Assembly: GCA_965215185.1 (NCBI GenBank)
Contig: OZ244034.1
Span: forward strand, 1,120,001-1,184,000
Direction: 5' to 3'
DNA from: Acidimicrobiia bacterium
GTDB lineage: Bacteria; Actinomycetota; Acidimicrobiia; Spongiisociales; ZC4RG35
DNA length: 64,000 bases
Shown here: positions 7,637 through 48,383 of the stretch, one piece after another
Layout: each line of letters starts with the position of its first letter
Position numbering within the stretch: position 1 is the stretch's first letter
The notes under the pieces: generated by a model
The model's database searches: none
What the model saw: only the letters and a program-made list of their open reading frames with translations
Told to the model about the DNA's origin: nothing
Made by a program: the position numbers and the translations under genes

Positions 7637-8962
7637 CTAATTCTTCAGGAAACCCCATTCCGAGCGAGCGTCGCGAGCCTTTTCCACGTTGACCAGGCTC
7701 AGCAGTACCAATCCCACTACAAAGAAGAACACCAGCGATAACACGGCAGGTCGACTCGAACCGGTCACCTGGCGGAAGGTGGCGAAAATGATCGGCCCCC
7801 AAATGGCGGAGAACTTGGTAAACACCGAGAAGAAGCCGAAGAACTCGGCGGAAGCCTGCTGGGGAATGATCGACCCATACAGGCTGCGGCTTAGCGCCTG
7901 GGTTCCTCCCAACACCATCCCGATAACCATCCCCAGCGCCAACAGAGGATAATTCTGGCCGACCGGCAGGTTGTAAGCGGCAATCAGCACACCTACCCAA
8001 ATCACCAGGGCGAAAGACACCGCACGCTTGGGGCCGATCCAATCGGACAGCCTTCCAAATGCCAGCGCCCCGAAAAAGGCCATGAACTGCACCACCAGCA
8101 GGACCAATGCGATGAAGAAGGTGCTGATCTCCAAAGTTTCCGAAGAGTAGATGGCAGAGATGTTTATAACTGTCTGAACCCCATCGATATAAAAGATGTA
8201 GGCCACAACGAACAACAGCAGATGCTTGTGTCCGGCCAGGTTGCGACAAGTGCTCCAGGTGCGGCCGAAACCAAGCCGCAGATAAGCCAGGTACCGACTC
8301 TCACCATCTCCGATTCCCAGGGGTTCCTGGGCTTCTCCTACCTCCTGCAAGCGCCGGAAGGCAAACCAGGAAAACCCTGCCCACCAAAGCCCCGCGCCGC
8401 CAATGGCCAGCCGAGCAGCCAGAGACTCTTCAATGCCCAGATCTTCCGCATAGAAGATGAACATCAATACCAAGAGCAGGTAGATCCCACCTCCGACGTA
8501 TCCGAAGGCGTATCCCTTGGAACTGACCCGGTCGATGGTGTCGTCGGTGGTGATGACCGGAAGCATCCCGTCGTAAAAGACGTTGGAGGCGGCGAGTCCG
8601 AAATGGGAGGCCAAGAACATCAAGATGGCCAACAGCACACTGCCGGTGGAAACGAAGGCAAAGCAGGTAATGAACAAAGCCCCCCCATAGGCAAACACCT
8701 TCAAGAACATCAGTCGCCGGGCGCTGTAATCGGCGATAGCCCCCAGCACCGGGGTTATCAGAAAGAGCGCCAAGGAGATCAGGCCGACCATATATCCCCA
8801 CAGTGACTCGGCGCTCAACCCCATCCAACCCTCATCGGGTATGAGCACTGACCCAAAATAAGTGGGAAGTATCCCCACTGTGATCACGACATAACCGGAA
8901 TTGGCCCAGTCGTACATGGCCCACCCGAAAATGGTGCGTTGATCGTTACGCATCTGGGTCAA
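7637..8962 (-). CDS. MFS transporter (UMF1/Atg22-like)
   Basis: WAMYDWANS, PVLGAIAD, SSKGYAFGYVGG, QALSRSLY, AEFFGFF motifs; 12 TM. Confidence 0.88.
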   Translation of the reverse strand: MTQMRNDQRTIFGWAMYDWANSGYVVITVGILPTYFGSVLIPDEGWMGLSAESLWGYMVGLISLALFLITPVLGAIADYSARRLMFLKVFAYGGALFITCFAFVSTGSVLLAILMFLASHFGLAASNVFYDGMLPVITTDDTIDRVSSKGYAFGYVGGGIYLLLVLMFIFYAEDLGIEESLAARLAIGGAGLWWAGFSWFAFRRLQEVGEAQEPLGIGDGESRYLAYLRLGFGRTWSTCRNLAGHKHLLLFVVAYIFYIDGVQTVINISAIYSSETLEISTFFIALVLLVVQFMAFFGALAFGRLSDWIGPKRAVSFALVIWVGVLIAAYNLPVGQNYPLLALGMVIGMVLGGTQALSRSLYGSIIPQQASAEFFGFFSVFTKFSAIWGPIIFATFRQVTGSSRPAVLSLVFFFVVGLVLLSLVNVEKARDARSEWGFLKN

Positions 8963-9964: not shown

Positions 9965-10795
9965 ATGGCCTTTGCCCTGGCAGGACTCACCGCCCTTTTC
10001 TACGGCTCAAGCCATTTCGCCGGAGCATTGGCAACTCGCCGGGCCTCGGTCTTGGCCGTCACCTTCTGGGCCAATGCCGTGGGGCTGGTCCTGGCGGTAT
10101 GCGCGGCGGTGGTCCATCACATTGTCGTAGGGGACACAGTGACCTTCACAGACCAAGCCTGGAGTGCCTTGTGCGGAGTAGCGGGAGTCGTCGGGGTGGC
10201 CTTCTACTTGCAAGGACTGGCCAAGGGACAGATAGCGGTAGTAGCTCCAGTCTCGGCAGTGACGCAGGCGATCGTTCCTTTTCTGTTCTCGGTAGCAGTG
10301 GGAGAACACCATACGGTCTCAGCCTGGGTGGGGGTGCTGGTGGCCATTCCGGCCCTATGGCTCACCGTTCACCGGCAGAAAGAACAAGGCCGGCCCGGAC
10401 GGGCATGGTACGGACTGGCGGCAGGTCTGGCCTTCTCCCTGTTTTTTGTGACAATTACCCAAACCTCACCGGAGGCCGGGTTCTGGCCACTGGTGACGTT
10501 GCGAGTCAGCGGCTTGGTACTGCTGGGAATATTCTTCCTGGCACGGCGAACGGCCCCCGCTGTTCCCTCCGAAGCCCGGCCGATGACGCTTTTGTCCGGC
10601 GGTTATATCCTGGCCAACCTCACCTACCTGCTGGCAACACGGATCGGACCGTTCGGGCTGGTCACGGTGACCGCTTCTTTCTATCCGGTGGTCACCTCCC
10701 TGCTGGCTGCGGTGGTGGTAAAGGAGAAGATACCCCTGCAACGCATGGCGGGTATGGCGCTGTCGGTTGTCTCTCTGGCGTTGATCACCATCTAA
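9965..10795 (+). CDS. EamA/DMT family transporter, paralogue 2
   Basis: Same architecture as 9131-9961; 276 aa. Confidence 0.88.
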   Translation: MAFALAGLTALFYGSSHFAGALATRRASVLAVTFWANAVGLVLAVCAAVVHHIVVGDTVTFTDQAWSALCGVAGVVGVAFYLQGLAKGQIAVVAPVSAVTQAIVPFLFSVAVGEHHTVSAWVGVLVAIPALWLTVHRQKEQGRPGRAWYGLAAGLAFSLFFVTITQTSPEAGFWPLVTLRVSGLVLLGIFFLARRTAPAVPSEARPMTLLSGGYILANLTYLLATRIGPFGLVTVTASFYPVVTSLLAAVVVKEKIPLQRMAGMALSVVSLALITI

Positions 10796-11830: not shown

Positions 11831-12271
11831 TCAGCGCAATACCAACCGGGCGCCCAATATCAGGAACATGATGCCCAGCAGTTTGCTCAATGAGATCTCT
11901 CGAACCGGTGCGCCCATCCACCCGAAGTGGTCGATTATGGTCCCGCCGGTAAGTTGTGCGGTGACCAATAGCATCGAACCGGCCAATACCCCCACCCTGG
12001 ACACCGTGAAGGCGATACTGCTAATGATCACGATACCGGCGAGCCCCGCCAGGTAGAGATAGGGGGGGATGCCCTGCCATTCGGCGAGACTTGGGCTTCG
12101 GGTGGCCAGCAAAAACACACCAAGCACCAGCGCGCCGACCACGAAATTGGCTGCAGTGCCAGCCATCATCCCCACTCTTTGTTCGAATTGCCCCATCATC
12201 TGGCTTTGGATGGCGGCCAACACCCCTCCCACCAATCCGAATAGCACCACCACTAACGCACTCACCGTCAC
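11831..12271 (-). CDS. DMT family transporter (YdcZ/DUF606-like)
   Basis: AIQSQMMG, NFVVG, PPYLYLAGLAG, AQLTGGTIIDHFGWMG motifs. Confidence 0.85.
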   Translation of the reverse strand: MTVSALVVVLFGLVGGVLAAIQSQMMGQFEQRVGMMAGTAANFVVGALVLGVFLLATRSPSLAEWQGIPPYLYLAGLAGIVIISSIAFTVSRVGVLAGSMLLVTAQLTGGTIIDHFGWMGAPVREISLSKLLGIMFLILGARLVLR

Positions 12272-12596: not shown

Positions 12597-15446
12597 ATGT
12601 CCAGCCGCCAACCCCTTGATTTCGCTGACCGACATATCGGGCCTCGGGGCAACGACATCGAAAAGATGCTGAAGGTGATCGGCGCCGAGTCCTTGGGCCA
12701 ACTGATGAGGGAGACGATACCGTTTTCGATCCGCTTGGATCGCGAACTCAATCTACCCGCTGCTCTCGGCGAGCCGGAGGCGCTGGGGAACCTGAAGGAG
12801 ATCGCCTCCCGGAACCAAGTGATGACTTCGCTGATCGGGCTGGGCTATTACAACGTCCACGTCCCTTCGGTGATCCAACGCCAGGTATTGGAGAATCCCG
12901 CCTGGTATACCGCCTACACCCCCTATCAGCCCGAGATTTCCCAGGGTCGTTTGGAGGCGCTGCTCAATTTTCAGACCATGGTCTCGGATCTCACCGGAAT
13001 GGAAGTGGCCAACGCCTCCCTTCTGGATGAGGGAACAGCGGCCGCCGAAGCCATGACCATGGCCCGTCGGATTTCCCGCCGTCGTCGCGCCACGCGGTTC
13101 TGGGTGGACACCGACACCTTTCCTCAGACCATCGAGGTGATCCGTACCCGCGCCCAATGGATGGATATCGACGTGGCGTTGGATCATCCCGAAGACATGG
13201 ACTTCCTGGACGGAGAATCATTCGGAGTGCTATTCCATTACCCGGGAGCCAGTGGGCAGGTGCGGGACCTCAGCAAAGCGGTGGAAGAAGCCCGAGCCGC
13301 CGGGATGGTGGTAGTTGTGGCCACCGATCTCTTGGCTCTCACTTTGCTGGCCCCGCCGGGGGATTGGGGAGCGGACATTGCGGTGGGATCCTCACAACGT
13401 TTCGGGGTTCCCATGATGTTCGGAGGCCCCCACGCCGGATTCATTGCCACCCGCGAAAGGCATGTACGCTCTCTCCCCGGACGGTTGGCGGGGTTGTCCG
13501 TCGACTCCAATGGAGATCCGGCCCTGCGGTTGGCGCTCCAAACCCGGGAACAACATATTCGCCGTCAACGAGCCACTTCCAACATTTGCACTGCCCAGGT
13601 GCTCTTGGCGGTGATGGCATCCTTCTATGCCTCATGGCATGGCCCACAGGGTCTAACCGCCATTGCCCGGCGAATCAACCGGCTCGCTGCGCGGATGGCG
13701 GCAGGTCTCCGTTCGGCGGGATGGGGACTGGTCAACTCCGCTTGGTTTGACACACTGTCGGTAAGAGCCGGAGAGTCAGCCGACCTGGTGATGGACACCG
13801 CACTGGCAGCCGGCATCAACCTGCGGCGCATCGACAGGTACACCGTCGGGATTTCCTTGGACGAAACAACCGATGAAGAAACCGCAACCCGAGCACTCTC
13901 CGCCTTCTCAGCGGACCTTCCCGCCACGGGTAACACTCCAGCGTTCCCTCAAAATCTGGCCCGGCAAAGCTCTTTCTTGAGCCATCCGGTGTTCAACAGT
14001 TATCACTCCGAGCACGAAATGCTCCGATACATCCGGCGTTTGTCGGATCGTGATCTCGCTTTGGACCGGACCATGATTCCGCTGGGATCCTGCACCATGA
14101 AGCTCAACCCGGCATCGTCGATGATCCCGGTCACCTGGCCGGAATTCTGCAACATGCACCCTTTTGCCCCGATCGAACAGGCTGAAGGGTATATGCAGCT
14201 TTTCTCGGACCTTGAGGACTGGCTGATCGAGATCACCGGCTATCAGGCGGTATCACTTCAGCCCAACGCCGGATCCCAGGGGGAACTGGCCGGTTTGGCG
14301 GCGATTCGCGCCTACCACCAGGCACATGGCGAAGACCACCGTCGGGTGTGTCTCATTCCCTCCTCCGCGCACGGGACCAACGCCGCTTCGGCAGTGATGG
14401 CCGGCATGCGCATCGCGGTGGTCAAATGCGATGAGCAGGGAAACATCGACCTGGTGGACTTGAAGGACCAAATAGCCCGCCAAGGAAACCAGCTAGCGGC
14501 GATCATGATCACCTATCCCTCCACCCATGGGGTGTTTGAGGACAGCGTTAGACAGGTGTGCGAAATGGTGCACAACGCCGGTGGCCAGGTGTATGTGGAT
14601 GGGGCCAACCTCAACGCCTTGGTGGGCCTTGCCCAGCCGGGCGCCTTTGGCGCCGACGTCTCCCACCTCAACCTCCACAAGACCTTTACCATTCCTCATG
14701 GGGGAGGGGGCCCGGGAGTGGGTCCGGTGGCGGTTCGGGCTCATCTTGCTCCGTACCTCCCCAACCATCCCCTGCAGTACGCGGCCGGACCCTCCACCGG
14801 TATCGGCCCCATCGCCGCGGCTCCCTGGGGGTCGGCGGGGATCCTCCCCATTCCCTGGATGTACATGAGAATGATGGGAGGAACGGGCTTGAAGAGAGCA
14901 TCAGAAACGGCCATCCTGGCGGCCAACTATCTAAAAGACAGGCTTTCTCGAGACTATCGGGTCCTGTATGTGGGAGAGCAGGGGAGAGTGGCGCACGAGG
15001 TGATCATCGATCTTCGGGAGTTCGTCGACACGGCCGGCGTGAACGCCGAGGATGTGGCCAAGCGTCTCACCGACTACGGCTTCCATGCTCCCACCCTCAG
15101 TTTCCCCGTTCCCGGCACCCTGATGATCGAACCGACCGAATCCGAGCCCTTGGCGGAACTCGACCGCTTCTGTGCAGCAATGTTCTCGATCCGGGAGGAG
15201 ATTCGACGAATAGCAGATGGGGAGTGGCCCCAGAACGACAACCCTCTTCACCATGCGCCTCACACTGCCCGGGTGGTGACCGCGGATCACTGGGATCGTC
15301 CCTACCTCCGGTCCACCGCGGCCTGGCCCGTCCCCGGCCTAGCGCCCGACAAGTACTGGTCGCCCGTGGGTAGGGTCGACTCGGTAACGGGGGATCGCAA
15401 CTTACAGTGCTCCTGTCCGCCTATCGAATCCTATGTCGAAGAGTAA
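12597..15446 (+). CDS. gcvP: Glycine dehydrogenase (decarboxylating), glycine cleavage P protein
   Basis: [58 protein letters not shown]. Confidence 0.97.
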
Positions 15447-43733: not shown

Positions 43734-43761
43734 ATGTCCCATAATCACCGTTATGTTAAGT
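43734..43761 (+). other. dif-like chromosome dimer resolution site (XerC/XerD)
   Basis: ATGTCCCATAA-TCACCG-TTATGTTAAGT, an 11-6-11 layout resembling E. coli GGTGCGCATAA-N6-TTATGTTAAAT; intergenic; gene orientation bias flips across it. Confidence 0.75.
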
Positions 43762-43805
43762 AGCTGGGTGATACTCCCTCCAATGAGCGTATGTTTGTTG
43801 TCCGA

Positions 43806-43871
43806 TCTCACGATAGTTGGCAATTTCTCACGTACTTGGCCATTCGTCTCACAGAGTTGGCCAATGTCTCA
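43806..43871 (+). repeat. Tandem 20-21 bp repeats (TCTCAC..AGTTGGCCAAT-like), putative transposase binding sites
   Basis: TCTCA recurs at 43806, 43826, 43847 and 43867, followed by TTGGC in the first three units. Confidence 0.8.
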
Positions 43872-44003
43872 AATTCCTGTCAAAAGGATGGTTGCGTAAG
43901 GGGGTGAGGGATCCAAGTATGATCTGCCGCGAATTGAAGGATGCCTTCTCCAAGAGACTGCTCGCCCTTTAGCCATCGAGGTCCACCTCCGCGTCTGATA
44001 TAG

Positions 44004-44204
44004 TTGCTGTTGATGGGAAGCGAAGCACTAGCCGCGTGGGATGCCGTGACCGAATCTGACGAATGCACGGTAGCGGACATCGAAGAATACATGGGGGTTG
44101 TACCCGACCCCTCAGGCGACCTTGAGGCTGGCCGAACCGTTTTCCACGCCACCGACGAAGATTTTCTTGACTTCCTGACTTCACGGATGCACGAACCGGG
44201 CTAA
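44004..44204 (+). pseudogene. Probable gene fragment inside the relic element
   Basis: Acidic 66-aa frame that reads like a protein C-terminus, preceded by an in-frame stop; no good RBS. Confidence 0.3.
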
Positions 44205-44408
44205 ATCCCATCGGACATGGCCAGTGGTCATATCGAAAAAGGCGGGATCTTCGGTCAGGGCGGAGGGGGATGGCCCCGGGAATTGACTACCCCAACTTGC
44301 GATTCCAGTGCCTGTTGAGCATAGTGAGAGGTTGGGGCAGCACTCCAGCAACAGGGGGCGTCAGGCAGAGGATGCTGTGGGCGTTTGTTCACATTGATGG
44401 TTCGGGGC

Positions 44409-44864
44409 TGTCCTCTCCCCCACCGAACGCCAACCTCTAAATGCCCAGGCCATGTCTCACCGTAGTTGGCGAAATCTCAACAATGTGGCGAAATGTCTCA
44501 CGGTTTTGGCGAACGTCCCCTAGCGGACACGGGTCGCCGTTGGATAGCAGTCCGCTAATACAACTGGCATGGCGAACGCTCACTGTTTCCGTCGGGGTGA
44601 TCGACGGCGGGTTGGTCTATTTTGGGTATGTGTGGGCAGAGTTCCCACCCGAAATACTATTCAAGCGATAGTCGCGGGTTATCGCCGCCACATAGATATC
44701 CGGCACTATCCCCTCCCCCACCACTTGAACCGTTGACTGTCAAACCGCTCCCTCAGAGAGCGGCTCTCCGATTTCGCTAACTACGGTGAGACAACGACCC
44801 TTGGTTCCATCTCAATCCAGTGGCGAAACTGGGCGATTCCCGCCATATAGCGTGAGATCGGACA
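44409..44864. mobile_element. 456-bp MITE-like element nested in the outer relic, with 6-bp target duplication
   Basis: Begins TGTCC, ends GTGAGATCGGACA; CGGGGC on both sides (44403-44408 and 44865-44870); repeat units at 44455, 44475 and 44496. Confidence 0.55.
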
Positions 44865-45018
44865 CGGGGCAGTTGACGGAAGCGCTCAATTCTGAGTTTC
44901 CCCAACATCGCAGGACCTTCTCCGATTTGGCCAACTACGGTGAGACAGAGTCTTGGGATTACCTCTCACAACCATGACAAGACGGGGGAATTTTGGCCAA
45001 CTACGGTGAGATCGGACA
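44766..45018 (+). repeat. Two ~100-bp imperfect direct repeats (right ends of the nested elements)
   Basis: TCTCCGATTT(C/G)GC(T/C)AACTACGGTGAGACA ... GTGAGATCGGACA occurs at about 44765-44864 and 44919-45018. Confidence 0.75.
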
Positions 45019-45155
45019 GTGTGGTTTCCCTCTCCCCTAACCACCCGTCGCTGATGGTTGGCGCCTCACTCTGATGATGGCGTCCCCGGCGGAAGCGCCA
45101 CCGACCGCTTGGTAGGATGGGTGAACCGCTACGGCTTGAAGGAAGGCTTCCGTCC

Positions 45156-45893
45156 ATGCCACCACAGAACTCGCACCCCAGTCACATCGCGTTACTGGTG
45201 GATGGAGACAACGCACAACCGTCCCTAATAGAGCCCATATTAACCGAGGTGGCGAAGCACGGCAGTATCACCACCAGGCGCATCTATGGAGACTGGACAA
45301 CACCTCAGATGTCCGGGTGGAAAGACGTTCTGCAGACCTACGCCATCCAACCTATTCAACAGTTCCGCTATACGGTGGGAAAGAACGCCACCGATAGTGC
45401 CTTGATAATCGATGCCATGGATCTGCTGCATGCCGGGGCGGTTGATGGATTCTGCATAGTGTCCAGCGATAGCGACTACACCAGATTGGCTACACGTATG
45501 CGCGAAGAGGGACTCTTTGTGATGGGGATAGGCCGCATGCAAACCCCCAGCTCCCTGGTTAACGCCTGTGAGGTGTTTGTTTACACCGAGAATCTCACTT
45601 CGTCGGAGCAAAACCCAGAAGACCGGGCTACACCCTCACAACCCTCCAAGTGGATCACTACGGTTGGGATTGCCGTAGAGACAGCTTTAGAGACAGGTAT
45701 AGAAGAAGACGGCTGGGTGATCCTCAGTATTGTCGGTAGCCAGATCCGCAAACTGGATCCCGCATTCGATCCCCGGACCTATGGATACTCACGATTGTCG
45801 CTCCTCGTCAAGTCGGAACCTGACAAGTTTGAAACTAGTAAGAGGGCAATTGGTGGGCACAAACAGCTCTACATAAGACGGTCTTCGAAATAG
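45156..45893 (+). CDS. NYN domain (LabA/DUF88, PIN-like) protein with C-terminal OST-HTH/LOTUS domain
   Basis: LLVDGDN, RIYGDW, GKNATDSALIIDAMDLL, VSSDSDY, FDPRTYGY..LS.L. Confidence 0.92.
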   Translation: MPPQNSHPSHIALLVDGDNAQPSLIEPILTEVAKHGSITTRRIYGDWTTPQMSGWKDVLQTYAIQPIQQFRYTVGKNATDSALIIDAMDLLHAGAVDGFCIVSSDSDYTRLATRMREEGLFVMGIGRMQTPSSLVNACEVFVYTENLTSSEQNPEDRATPSQPSKWITTVGIAVETALETGIEEDGWVILSIVGSQIRKLDPAFDPRTYGYSRLSLLVKSEPDKFETSKRAIGGHKQLYIRRSSK

Positions 45894-46583: not shown

Positions 46584-48227
46584 CTAGGCAGACTCGATCC
46601 CGGCCGCAGTCTCCAGGCCCAGTTCGGCGATGGAGACCTGGCGCATCTCCACCTTGCGAACCTTGCCGGTGACGGTCATCGGGAACCCGTCAACGAATTT
46701 CACGTATTGGGGGACCTTGAAGTGGGCGATGCGGCCCTGGCAGAATTCCTTGATTTCCTCGCCGGTAGCTTCAGCGCCTTCCCGTAGCTTGACCCAAGCC
46801 ATCACCTGCTCACCGTACTTGATGTCGGGTACGCCGATTACTTGGACATCTTCGATGGCCGGGTGCCCGTACAGGTATTCCTCGATCTCCCTGGGGTAGA
46901 TGTTCTCGCCTCCTCGGATGATCATGTCCTTGATCCGCCCGACGATGTTCACATAGCCCTCCGAGTCCATCGTGGCGAGGTCGCCGGAGTGCATCCAGCC
47001 CTCGGTGTCGATCGAAGCCTCGGTCCTCTCCGGTTCACTCCAGTAGCCCAGCATGACCGAGTAGCCGCGGGTGCACAGTTCGCCGTCCCTGCCCCGCTCC
47101 ACTGTTTTGCCGCTCTCGGGATCGATGATCTTGATCTCGACGTGGGGATGGACGCGCCCAACGGTGGAGACCCGCCTCTCGATGGTGTCTGTGGTCATCG
47201 TCTGCGTTGACACCGGGGATGTCTCAGTCATGCCGTAGGCGATGGTCACGTCTGTCATGTTCATGTCGGAGATGACCTGCTTCATGACCTCCACCGGGCA
47301 CGGTGATCCGGCCATGATCCCGGTGCGAAGAGACGACAGGTCGAAGGACTTCAGATCAGGGTGAGCAAGCTCCGCGATGAACATGGTCGGCACCCCGTAT
47401 AGGCTCGTACACCTCTCCCCCTGCACCGCGGTCAGAACCTCCTCCGGATTGAATCCCGGGCCCGGGAAAATGATCGCCGACCCGTGGGTGGTGCACGCAA
47501 GGGTGCCCAGCACCATACCGAAACAGTGGTATAGGGGGACCGGGATGCACACTCGATCTTCTTCGGTGTAGGCGCACGCCTCACCGATGAAGAAGGCGTT
47601 GTTCAGGATGTTGGAGTGGCTGAGGGTGGCGCCCTTGGGGAACCCTGTGGTACCGGAGGTGTATTGGATGTTGATGGCGTCGTCGTGATGAAGGCCGGCC
47701 ATCCGCTCGGCCAGAACTTCTTCCATGCCGTCGCGGGCTGGTTCCATCAGGGCATCCCACTGGGGCGTGTCGAGGAAGATCACCCGCTCAAGACCGTCCA
47801 GTTCGTCCCGGACCTCGGAGATCATGGCCCGGTAGTCGGAGGACAGGTATTTCTGAGCCGAGACCAGTACCCGGCATCCCGATTGCGCCAGCGCATAGCG
47901 CACCTCGTGAGTGCGATAGGCGGGGTTGATGTTTACCAGGATCACGCCGACCTTGGCGGTTGCGTACTGGAGCCACACCCACTCCGCGCAGTTGGGGCTC
48001 CAGATACCTACCCGGTCACCGACCTCAAGGCCGAGACGGAGCAGACCCAGCGCCAGCCGGTCAACCGATTCGTTGAAGCTCCTGTAGCTCTGGCAGATTT
48101 CCTGGTGCATCGAGACTAGAGCGTCCCTGTCCGGGAACCGGGCCACCATCGACTCGAGGTTCTGACCGATGGTCTCCTGCAATAGGGGCGTCGCTGTGTC
48201 ACCGCTTGCGTACGCTAAGGCCGGCAT
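46584..48227 (-). CDS. AMP-binding acyl-CoA synthetase (FadD/ACSF2-like)
   Basis: [59 protein letters not shown]. Confidence 0.93.
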
Positions 48228-48352
48228 GTCTCTCTCTCGGTCGATGACCTCTCAGGGGACTATATCAGCCTGTCAAGAAGGGCCTCCTGCTGGTCGTGGT
48301 CGGATCGCATAAATACAAGCCGGGGCGCAGCCCGAAGCCTGGCAAAACGGGG

Positions 48353-48383
48353 GATTTCTCGCCAGGTACCGTGAGATAGGACA
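48353..48383 (-). repeat. Degenerate solo copy of the transposon-end motif
   Basis: GATTTCTCGCCAGGTACCGTGAGATAGGACA resembles the ends at 44864 and 45018. Confidence 0.5.

Follow-up and report, generated by a model that had tools for sequence, protein, structure and literature searches.

The chromosomal dif site of an Acidimicrobiia bacterium (assembly GCA_965215185.1) is followed by a group of repeated transposon-type ends at 43799-45018 of the stretch analysed here, a 64,000-nt window of contig OZ244034.1 (positions 1,120,001 to 1,184,000, forward strand; coordinates without a prefix are counted from its first base). We contend that, very probably, this region consists of at least three non-autonomous derivatives of a Tn7-like transposon family, lined up head to tail in a decayed array, and the family uses dif as its attachment site on the chromosome. 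The evidence comes from the anatomy of the region, a congener array in which different elements are separated by identical duplications, empty sites in related genomes, ends held in common with elements that encode tnsABC-tniQ genes, and an oriented association of these ends with dif.

Anatomy of the array

The following features make up the array and its junction with dif.

43734-43761, plus strand: chromosomal dif, 28 nt, ATGTCCCATAA TCACCG TTATGTTAAGT; XerC-type arm 43734-43744, central 6 nt 43745-43750, XerD-type arm TTATGTTAAGT 43751-43761
43762-43798, no strand: spacer from dif to the first element, 37 nt; the presumed target 5-mer, TTTGT, occupies its end (43794-43798)
43799-44454, plus strand: element E1, shortened; packed (Tn7R-type) end 43799-43890, body kept, distal end lost
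44455-44864, plus strand: second mini-element; packed end without its terminal TGTCCGA, spaced (Tn7L-type) end 44765-44864
44865-45018, minus strand: what is left of a third element; a complete spaced end 44919-45018, ending ...GATCGGACA, preceded by 54 nt of interior

A first-pass annotation made from the sequence alone had described TGT...ACA termini with a 21/23 inverted repeat, closely packed 20-21-bp units, a spaced end type present twice, a distance of 37 bp from dif and the lack of a transposase, and this description holds. The terminus TGTCCGATCTCAC begins at 43799 and its reverse complement ends at both 44864 and 45018, the outer 23-nt arms (43799-43821 and 44996-45018) being 91% complementary. 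Packed units of the type TCTCAC-N5-TTGGC lie at 43806, 43826, 43847 and 43867, about 20-21 nt apart, and again at 44455, 44475 and 44496, while the two spaced ends are 100-nt copies (44765-44864 and 44919-45018) with 70% similarity and a unit spacing of about 65-73 nt. The distance from the XerD-type arm to the TGT is 37 nt. With at most one mismatch allowed, the unit pattern occurs nine times in the window against 1.26 expected, a number that none of 100 shuffles reached; six of these matches fall within 43806-45011 and one at 48361-48376. None of the four open reading frames (ORFs) tested inside 43799-45018 matches a Pfam family, hence no transposase domain is present there.

Each part of the region has a counterpart in other genomes of the genus. 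The segments 43791-44223 and 44213-44462 are 99.1% and 98.8% identical to the first element of an array in G011, relative to which the E1 of the window has a ~470-bp internal deletion and has lost its L end. A 100-aa ORF of the G011 copy (contig L032, 7923-8222; no Pfam match) falls within these ~470 bp, and the window copy keeps only the upstream 66-aa ORF (44004-44204). Further along, the R end of the G011 element E3 matches 44455-44503 with 92% identity, the L end of G011 E2 matches 44676-44864 with 86%, and the end on contig C62 of G016 is 80% identical to the remnant of the third element. The switch from E1 to the packed end at 44455 falls at a shared TCTC, and a metagenome contig has the second-element end intact, with TGTTGTCCGA before 44455.

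These comparisons bear on the earlier proposal of a nested pair, in which a 456-bp element (44409-44864) jumped into an older element of 1.2 kb and duplicated CGGGGC. The exact 6-nt repeat does exist (44403-44408 and 44865-44870) and 44409 starts with TGTCC, but this repeat is unlikely to mark a target duplication. What was taken for the left end of the inner element (TGTCCTCTCC, 44409) belongs to the interior of E1, and the G011 copy, 99% identical, has it too: GGTTCGGGGCTGTCCTCTCCCCCACC... lies inside G011 E1 (L032 ~8589-8620), where the element's own L end follows with no CGGGGC beyond it. The real packed end starts at 44455 without its terminal 7 nt, as would be left by a deletion between neighbouring ends at the shared TCTC, and duplications elsewhere in the family measure 5 nt. 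Nesting is accordingly unlikely, and 43799-45018 is better read from these alignments as three or more elements stacked in tandem, from which deletions have removed parts.

We also considered a repetitive extragenic palindromic (REP)-like repeat scattered through the genome and rejected it, as the exact 13-mer terminus occurs five times in the 3.12-Mb genome, three of them at the array and the other two without adjoining units. Elsewhere, a solitary one-unit end fragment, TGGCCGATCTCACGCTACTTGGC, is found at genome position 1,996,773, with no partner end or dif-like site within 3 kb.

The chromosomal dif site

The site at 43734-43761 is a genuine chromosomal dif, given that it is the single dif-like site in a pattern scan of the whole genome, that it lies at 1.164 Mb on the plateau of maximal cumulative GC skew (1.10-1.17 Mb; maximum at 1.11 Mb, minimum at 2.53 Mb) and that its core pattern is found in exactly one copy each in 42 of 61 relatives, a tally that takes in the unpublished genome G039, on which nothing else here depends (reversed-pattern control, 0). 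Two XerC/D-type recombinases are encoded in the genome. The arms are named here after the C-spacer-D layout as printed in Tables 5 and 8 of PMC10132070. An RNA gene as the attachment site was dropped, since Rfam and tRNA scans of the 64-kb window for such a target gave no tRNA and no tmRNA but solely a glycine riboswitch aptamer (RF00504, 12385-12474, 67.4 bits).

Empty sites and a larger array in related genomes

The comparison with empty-site relatives that the first-pass annotation had recommended was informative. In the congeners G006, G015 and G014 the homologue of the NYN gene that flanks the array in the window starts ~80-130 nt after dif and no element intervenes, so the array represents an insertion. 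The window gene is therefore listed as flank.

45117-45893, plus strand: NYN/OST-HTH gene, chromosomal flank and not cargo (Pfam NYN 119.6 bits, OST-HTH 49.9 bits)

The opposite situation is seen in G011 (contig L032), in which dif and a 36-nt spacer ending in TCTGT are followed by five elements.

L032 7506-8743: E1
L032 8762-10773: E2
L032 10779-12044: E3
L032 12050-12899: E4, followed by the start of a fifth element

TCTGT precedes E1 and also forms the junctions E2/E3, E3/E4 and E4/E5 (10774-10778, 12045-12049 and 12900-12904), and the junction between E1 and E2 is irregular, 18 nt long and starting with TCTG. An identical 5-mer between different elements is what would be expected if elements had been inserted one after another at a single point by cut-and-paste, each duplicating 5 bp and the newest lying nearest dif.

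The packed end lies 34-37 nt from dif in four genomes of the genus (37 in this genome, 36 in G011, 36 in G016 and 34 in G004), and because the four spacers are mutually unalignable, the spacer sequence itself is not the conserved feature. E1 is 99% identical between this genome and G011, a value above that of the nearby ligase gene (94.7%), and this identity, together with the unalignable spacers, speaks for insertions that were independent and recent. Both E1 contexts are represented by contigs in the same public metagenomes (loose ends at 43791, 44462, 44213 and 44223), where contigs show presence only.

The cargo of the arrays was assessed by scanning 111 ORFs, among which matches to DUF433 (twice), DUF7689, HEPN (weak), DUF6338 and TIR_2 were obtained. 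No transposase of the Tn7-like family was found among these 111 ORFs, the single transposase-related match being a fragment of an IS4/5-type DUF4096 (L034 716-937), and a survey of rve domains in five congeners returned ordinary insertion sequence (IS) copies alone, none of them at the arrays.

Integration by XerCD recombination, as in IMEX or dif-module elements, is another way in which material could accumulate at this position. The elements do adjoin dif in tandem arrays, as CTX/TLC-type elements do, and duplicated XerD half-sites are present next to dif in some relatives: L065 (G053) and L079 (G041) have one or two extra half-sites (TTATGTAAAGT or TTATGTCAAGT) after dif, at ~20-36-nt spacing, which may be scars of Xer-integrated elements. 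An IMEX, however, is bounded by dif and a dif-like copy, whereas this genome has one dif-like site and none flanks the elements; the boundaries here are TGT/ACA ends, with junctions formed by 5-bp direct repeats and placed 36-37 nt from the crossover region. We consider this route extremely improbable in comparison with transposition next to dif.

Autonomous relatives

A 19-base pattern internal to the end found in the window (TGTCCGNTCTCANNNTAGTTGGC) was used to scan one genome per species, and 35 loci were recovered against a chance expectation of ~4 by our estimate. Four of these loci lie outside Actinomycetota (L097, L108, L115 and L120) and have no second unit; the others belong to Acidimicrobiia, Pseudarthrobacter, Arthrobacter, Dietzia, Mycobacterium and related metagenome-assembled genomes. 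Intact elements with TnsB/TnsC/TniQ-like genes, for which the first-pass annotation had suggested a search, occur in Pseudarthrobacter and Dietzia with their packed ends beside dif-like sites. Pseudarthrobacter sp. P1 has two complete elements, one of 4979 bp on a plasmid with ACTTC at both flanks and one of 5054 bp on the chromosome with GCAAA at one flank and ACAAA at the other (4/5 match). A 5-bp target duplication is accordingly seen twice in the family, as the four copies of TCTGT in G011 and the pair of ACTTC on the P1 plasmid. Copies from Hiyo8 and from a Nocardia plasmid were left out as truncated or incomplete.

Read from the packed end, the P1 and Dietzia elements have the gene order tnsA-like, tnsB, tniB/tnsC and a ~280-aa tniQ-like gene. 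The TnsA-like endonuclease matches NF033179 (TnsA_like_Actin) with 212.5 bits at a cut-off of 110, the Pfam family Tn7_TnsA-like_N being below its cut-off; TnsB matches Mu-transpos_C with 30-38 bits (cut-off 21.7), along with helix-turn-helix and weak rve matches; and the TniB/TnsC ATPase scores 56-60 bits (cut-off 22.4). RefSeq names for the first three genes agree on the Arthrobacter plasmid pJ349-116. Neither a resolvase nor a second targeting pathway (TnsE or CRISPR) was seen among the genes of the 5-kb elements.

The resemblance of the ends extends past the search pattern. The L ends of the window, G011 and P1 all consist of a direct, an inverted and a direct unit at equal spacing, and the R ends have their first 32 nt in common. 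By this comparison the elements of the window have ends matching those of autonomous tnsA-tnsB-tniB-tniQ elements; they are themselves not autonomous, being relics or mini-elements without TnsA, TnsB, TnsC or selector genes.

The fourth protein has 57 homologous clusters, and one source gives a homologue the name 'TniQ protein'. Its N-terminal motif is PLPVPTR..GGEG..SYA.RHA and it has an invariant C..C...C..H. The predicted model is good, with a mean pLDDT of 83.9; 28 of 30 feature matches in the Atlas were clusters carrying PF06527 TniQ, and one structural row over residues 1-144 reaches the naming bar for PF06527. Foldseek found no PDB structure similar to the model at E <= 0.001, and phmmer and profile searches of the protein against PDB sequences gave nothing relevant. 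We label this protein TniQ-like. Many of its homologues are on contigs of 4.95-5.2 kb, the size of a whole element, as expected of a multi-copy or excised element.

Orientation-specific association with dif

Of the packed ends at the 35 loci, 14 are distinct and stand first in their array; 13 of these could be assessed, the flank of L109 being limited to 32 nt. An XerD-arm-like TTATGNNNNNN of the TTATG type lies 34-51 nt outside the end in all 13. A full ATAA-N6-TTATG-N6 site is present at ten of them, and the remaining three (L099, L116 and L128) have a degenerate XerC arm. No such XerD-arm-like half-site was found within 90 nt of any of 16 spaced ends. The genomes of P1, P. albicanus and Dietzia aurantiaca (G434-G436) contain a total of seven dif-like sites (reversed controls, 0), and all five packed ends in these genomes lie beside five of the seven, plasmid sites included.

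Sequence comparison thus gives good support to dif-directed, orientation-specific Tn7-like transposition, and the packed end in the window sits at the attachment site of the family in the orientation of the family. The suggestion that related Tn7-type elements inserted repeatedly beside dif is upheld by the single orientation, the set distance, the G011 array and the count of 13 out of 13. The part that is constant across the XerD-side examples is the XerD arm, the XerC arm being degenerate in three, which hints that the XerD half of dif is the part recognised.

Observations that weigh against the proposed reading

Several results do not sit easily with the above, and we gather them here. To begin with the insertion itself, the window contains no intact target duplication, with TTTGT on the left versus GTGTG, CGGGG and ACTCA after the three right ends, and the gap between packed end and XerD arm varies from 34 to 51 nt across the family. 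Metagenomes scanned with the Acidimicrobiia-type end gave 0 loci; a broader pattern gave 26, mostly spaced ends like those of Mycobacterium, and no Acidimicrobiia helper. Only one of three distinct packed-type ends from this broader scan, L149 (identical to L157), has an XerD arm, and none was seen at L144/L145 and L141. A spacer of ~30 nt, CCAAATATGTTGGACGA.AGCACTATTCC, is common to the packed ends L116, L144/L145 and L149/L157 from different sources; a common replicon backbone is one possible reason, a role in target recognition another.

Relatives further afield also depart from the pattern. A distant one on the Arthrobacter plasmid pJ349-116 (L216 1490-1570) sits 36-39 nt from the XerC side, the side of the dif-like site opposite to that used by all the others; it has tnsA-tnsB-tniB and TGTCCGTTGTCAG ends, and its TniQ-like protein is ~45% identical to P0015. 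Among elements with TnsA_like_Actin in a sample of the phylum, 0 of 24 had a strict dif pattern or a window-type end within 520 nt, and 0 of 19 that were re-scanned had a relaxed dif pattern in either orientation within 600 nt. Since these other elements of the phylum show no dif, dif targeting is the trait of a sub-clade and does not extend to every element of this type.

The variable gap, the spacer common to L116, L144 and L149 and the lack of a recognisable XerD arm at L144 are what would be expected if the transposon recognised something near dif, such as a terminus-specific structure or the spacer sequence, and not dif itself. On the other side, plasmid copies too sit by dif-like sites, and dif alone is common to the genomes of the window's genus, whose spacers show no relation to one another. 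A cue other than dif therefore seems improbable to us, and we keep dif as the attachment site.

The source of the transposase is a further difficulty. No TnsA, TnsB, TnsC or TniQ/TnsD selector gene was found in this genome; TnsA was above cut-off in 0 of 401 sampled Acidimicrobiia; and neither TnsA nor PF09299 was found in G011, G016, G004 and G437, the positive control G434 being detected. PF09299 matches occur in six of the 401. Four such loci (in G157, twice in G148 and in G175) were examined as a possible helper and rejected as members of other families, having different ends, a two-gene layout and no dif nearby. Completeness of the assemblies searched for a helper is 94-95%, and they may lack plasmids. 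A helper element for the window copies is hypothetical here, and we infer that these copies moved in trans. Recent mobilisation by a helper that was not captured would account for E1 being 99% identical across species when the ligase gene is at 94.7% and the spacers differ.

The assignment of the selector is open to the objection that the ~280-aa fourth protein has no Pfam or NCBIfam match at all, and that the TniQ/TnsD chains 8fcu_P, 8rdu_C and 9bw1_J, the sole rows of a wide fold search to cover residues 1-144, have low Z values of 4.1-4.2, too low to settle the assignment by themselves.

Relationship to known elements

Tn7 inserts at attTn7, downstream of glmS, by means of TnsABC and TnsD, at a set insertion distance and with its packed (R) end proximal to the gene. 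The present family is like Tn7 in having TnsA/TnsB, an AAA+ regulator of the TnsC type, a putative selector of the TniQ family, TGT...ACA termini, packed and spaced ends, a 5-bp duplication, a fixed distance and an R end facing the site. It differs in that the site is the non-coding dif and not the end of a conserved gene, that the selector has only ~280 aa and that the gap is ~34-51 nt.

Tn5053/Tn402, the res hunters, likewise direct machinery of the TniA/TniB/TniQ type to a place in the host replicon that serves site-specific recombination. They lack TnsA, have a resolvase and choose the res sites of serine resolvases, whereas the relatives described here encode a TnsA-like endonuclease and adjoin the Xer sites of tyrosine recombinases.

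The first-pass annotation had regarded targeting of dif as an unusual mode, and in this it was mistaken, as dif-hunting is already known for IS elements of the IS1202/ISAjo2 type. The accessible parts of two sources (PMC10132070; bioRxiv 10.1101/2022.12.17.520857) describe the ISAjo2/ISAba32 group of the IS1202 family as hunters of dif and pdif with fixed orientation, a 5-bp duplication and tandem copies that are split by the same 5 bp, the newest being proximal. As far as these parts go, the group resembles the present family in its use of chromosomal dif and plasmid Xer sites, its fixed orientation, TGT/ACA ends, 5-bp duplication and tandem copies. It differs in having a single transposase of 400-500 aa, no TnsA, TnsC or TniQ, insertion 5-6 bp from the XerC arm and a distribution known mainly in Proteobacteria; the present family has four genes, lies 34-51 nt from dif on the XerD side and occurs in Actinomycetota.

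It can be asked on this basis whether the relics are miniature derivatives of such IS elements, which need only one TnsB-like transposase. The TGT/ACA ends, the 5-bp duplication, the dif targeting and the tandem copies split by the same 5 bp would all suit this origin, so far as the available text of PMC10132070 and bioRxiv 10.1101/2022.12.17.520857 describes them. Against it, IS1202-type elements have one extra internal binding site per end and lie 5-6 bp from the XerC arm, while the window has three to four units per end and a gap of 37 nt on the XerD side; moreover, window-type ends bound elements that encode TnsA, TnsB, TniB and a TniQ-like protein. An IS1202-type origin is thus very improbable, and descent from the Tn7-like family is retained.

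The stacking of several Tn7-like elements at one site, reshaped by deletion and recombination, has a parallel in the Tn6022-type insertions at comM in Acinetobacter (PMC11014353, available portion). The attachment site there is another one, and in the same portion the link to Xer consists of an XerC-like cargo gene and a dif-like site inside the island. A Tn7-like clade dominated by Actinobacteria and without a characterised member appears in the consulted portion of Benler et al. 2021 (PMC8649781).

Within the literature searched, including the accessible parts of PMC10293859, PMC8649781 and PMC12915292 and with supplements and most subscription journals outside its scope, no account describes a TnsABC-TniQ element that uses dif as its attachment site. 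The use of dif by a heteromeric TnsA/TnsB/TnsC/TniQ element appears to be unreported.

Neighbouring features

One more spaced-type end is found on the far side of the flanking genes.

48265-48383, minus strand: third end of the spaced type, decayed, TGTCCTATCTCAC...; the acyl-CoA ligase gene (46584-48227) has it on its upstream side

It aligns to the consensus of the L end over its first ~50 nt and is degenerate past that. In G004 a similar spaced-type end is located beyond the stop codon of the ligase homologue, and not upstream as in the window; the two placements suggest an old inversion or an older, larger element. G011 (L032 12905-15512) is without the NYN and F420H2-quinone-reductase genes that the window has between array and ligase gene, which implies a deletion next to its array. 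In L090 (G003), dif is inverted relative to its pfk and NYN flanks when compared with the window, and the NYN gene is on the XerC side.

Proposed mechanism and significance

By analogy with Tn7, we propose that the TniQ-like selector would recognise the XerD half of dif (its DNA or the site with Xer protein bound) and would recruit the TnsC ATPase, which would in turn position the TnsA/TnsB transposase. Insertion would take place ~32-37 bp beyond the XerD arm with the packed (R) end nearest dif and with a 5-bp target duplication. Each newcomer would use the same point and displace older copies outward, giving rise to an array that deletions between neighbouring ends would then erode. The window copies, which consist of ends without genes, would have been moved in trans by a helper outside this assembly.

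A broader interpretation can be put forward tentatively, as a possibility that we rate somewhat below even. These elements may form a compact four-gene family in which a small TniQ-like selector reads the XerD half, so that a single pathway leads both to dif, a universal safe site on the chromosome, and to plasmid dimer-resolution sites. In Acidimicrobiia the family may persist mainly as arrays of helper-mobilised cassettes, themselves transposase-less and carrying cargo of the defence or toxin-antitoxin type (DUF433, HEPN, TIR, DUF6338), with helpers rarely present in assemblies; the flank of dif would in that case act as an integron-like platform for gene capture at the replication terminus.

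The site is short, essential, single-copy and intergenic, it is present in nearly all bacteria with circular chromosomes, and plasmids carry look-alikes. If the proposal is true, homing of a Tn7-type element to dif would be a new class of attachment site for a well-studied family, one selector would account for vertical and horizontal spread alike, and a very small TniQ-type selector would be available for a near-universal safe-harbour site. Whether DNA or a bound Xer protein is the cue for dif-hunting transposons, a question already raised for IS1202 elements, would become directly testable. For annotation, the variable island beside dif in Acidimicrobiia would be read as stacked mini-transposons with small defence-type genes.

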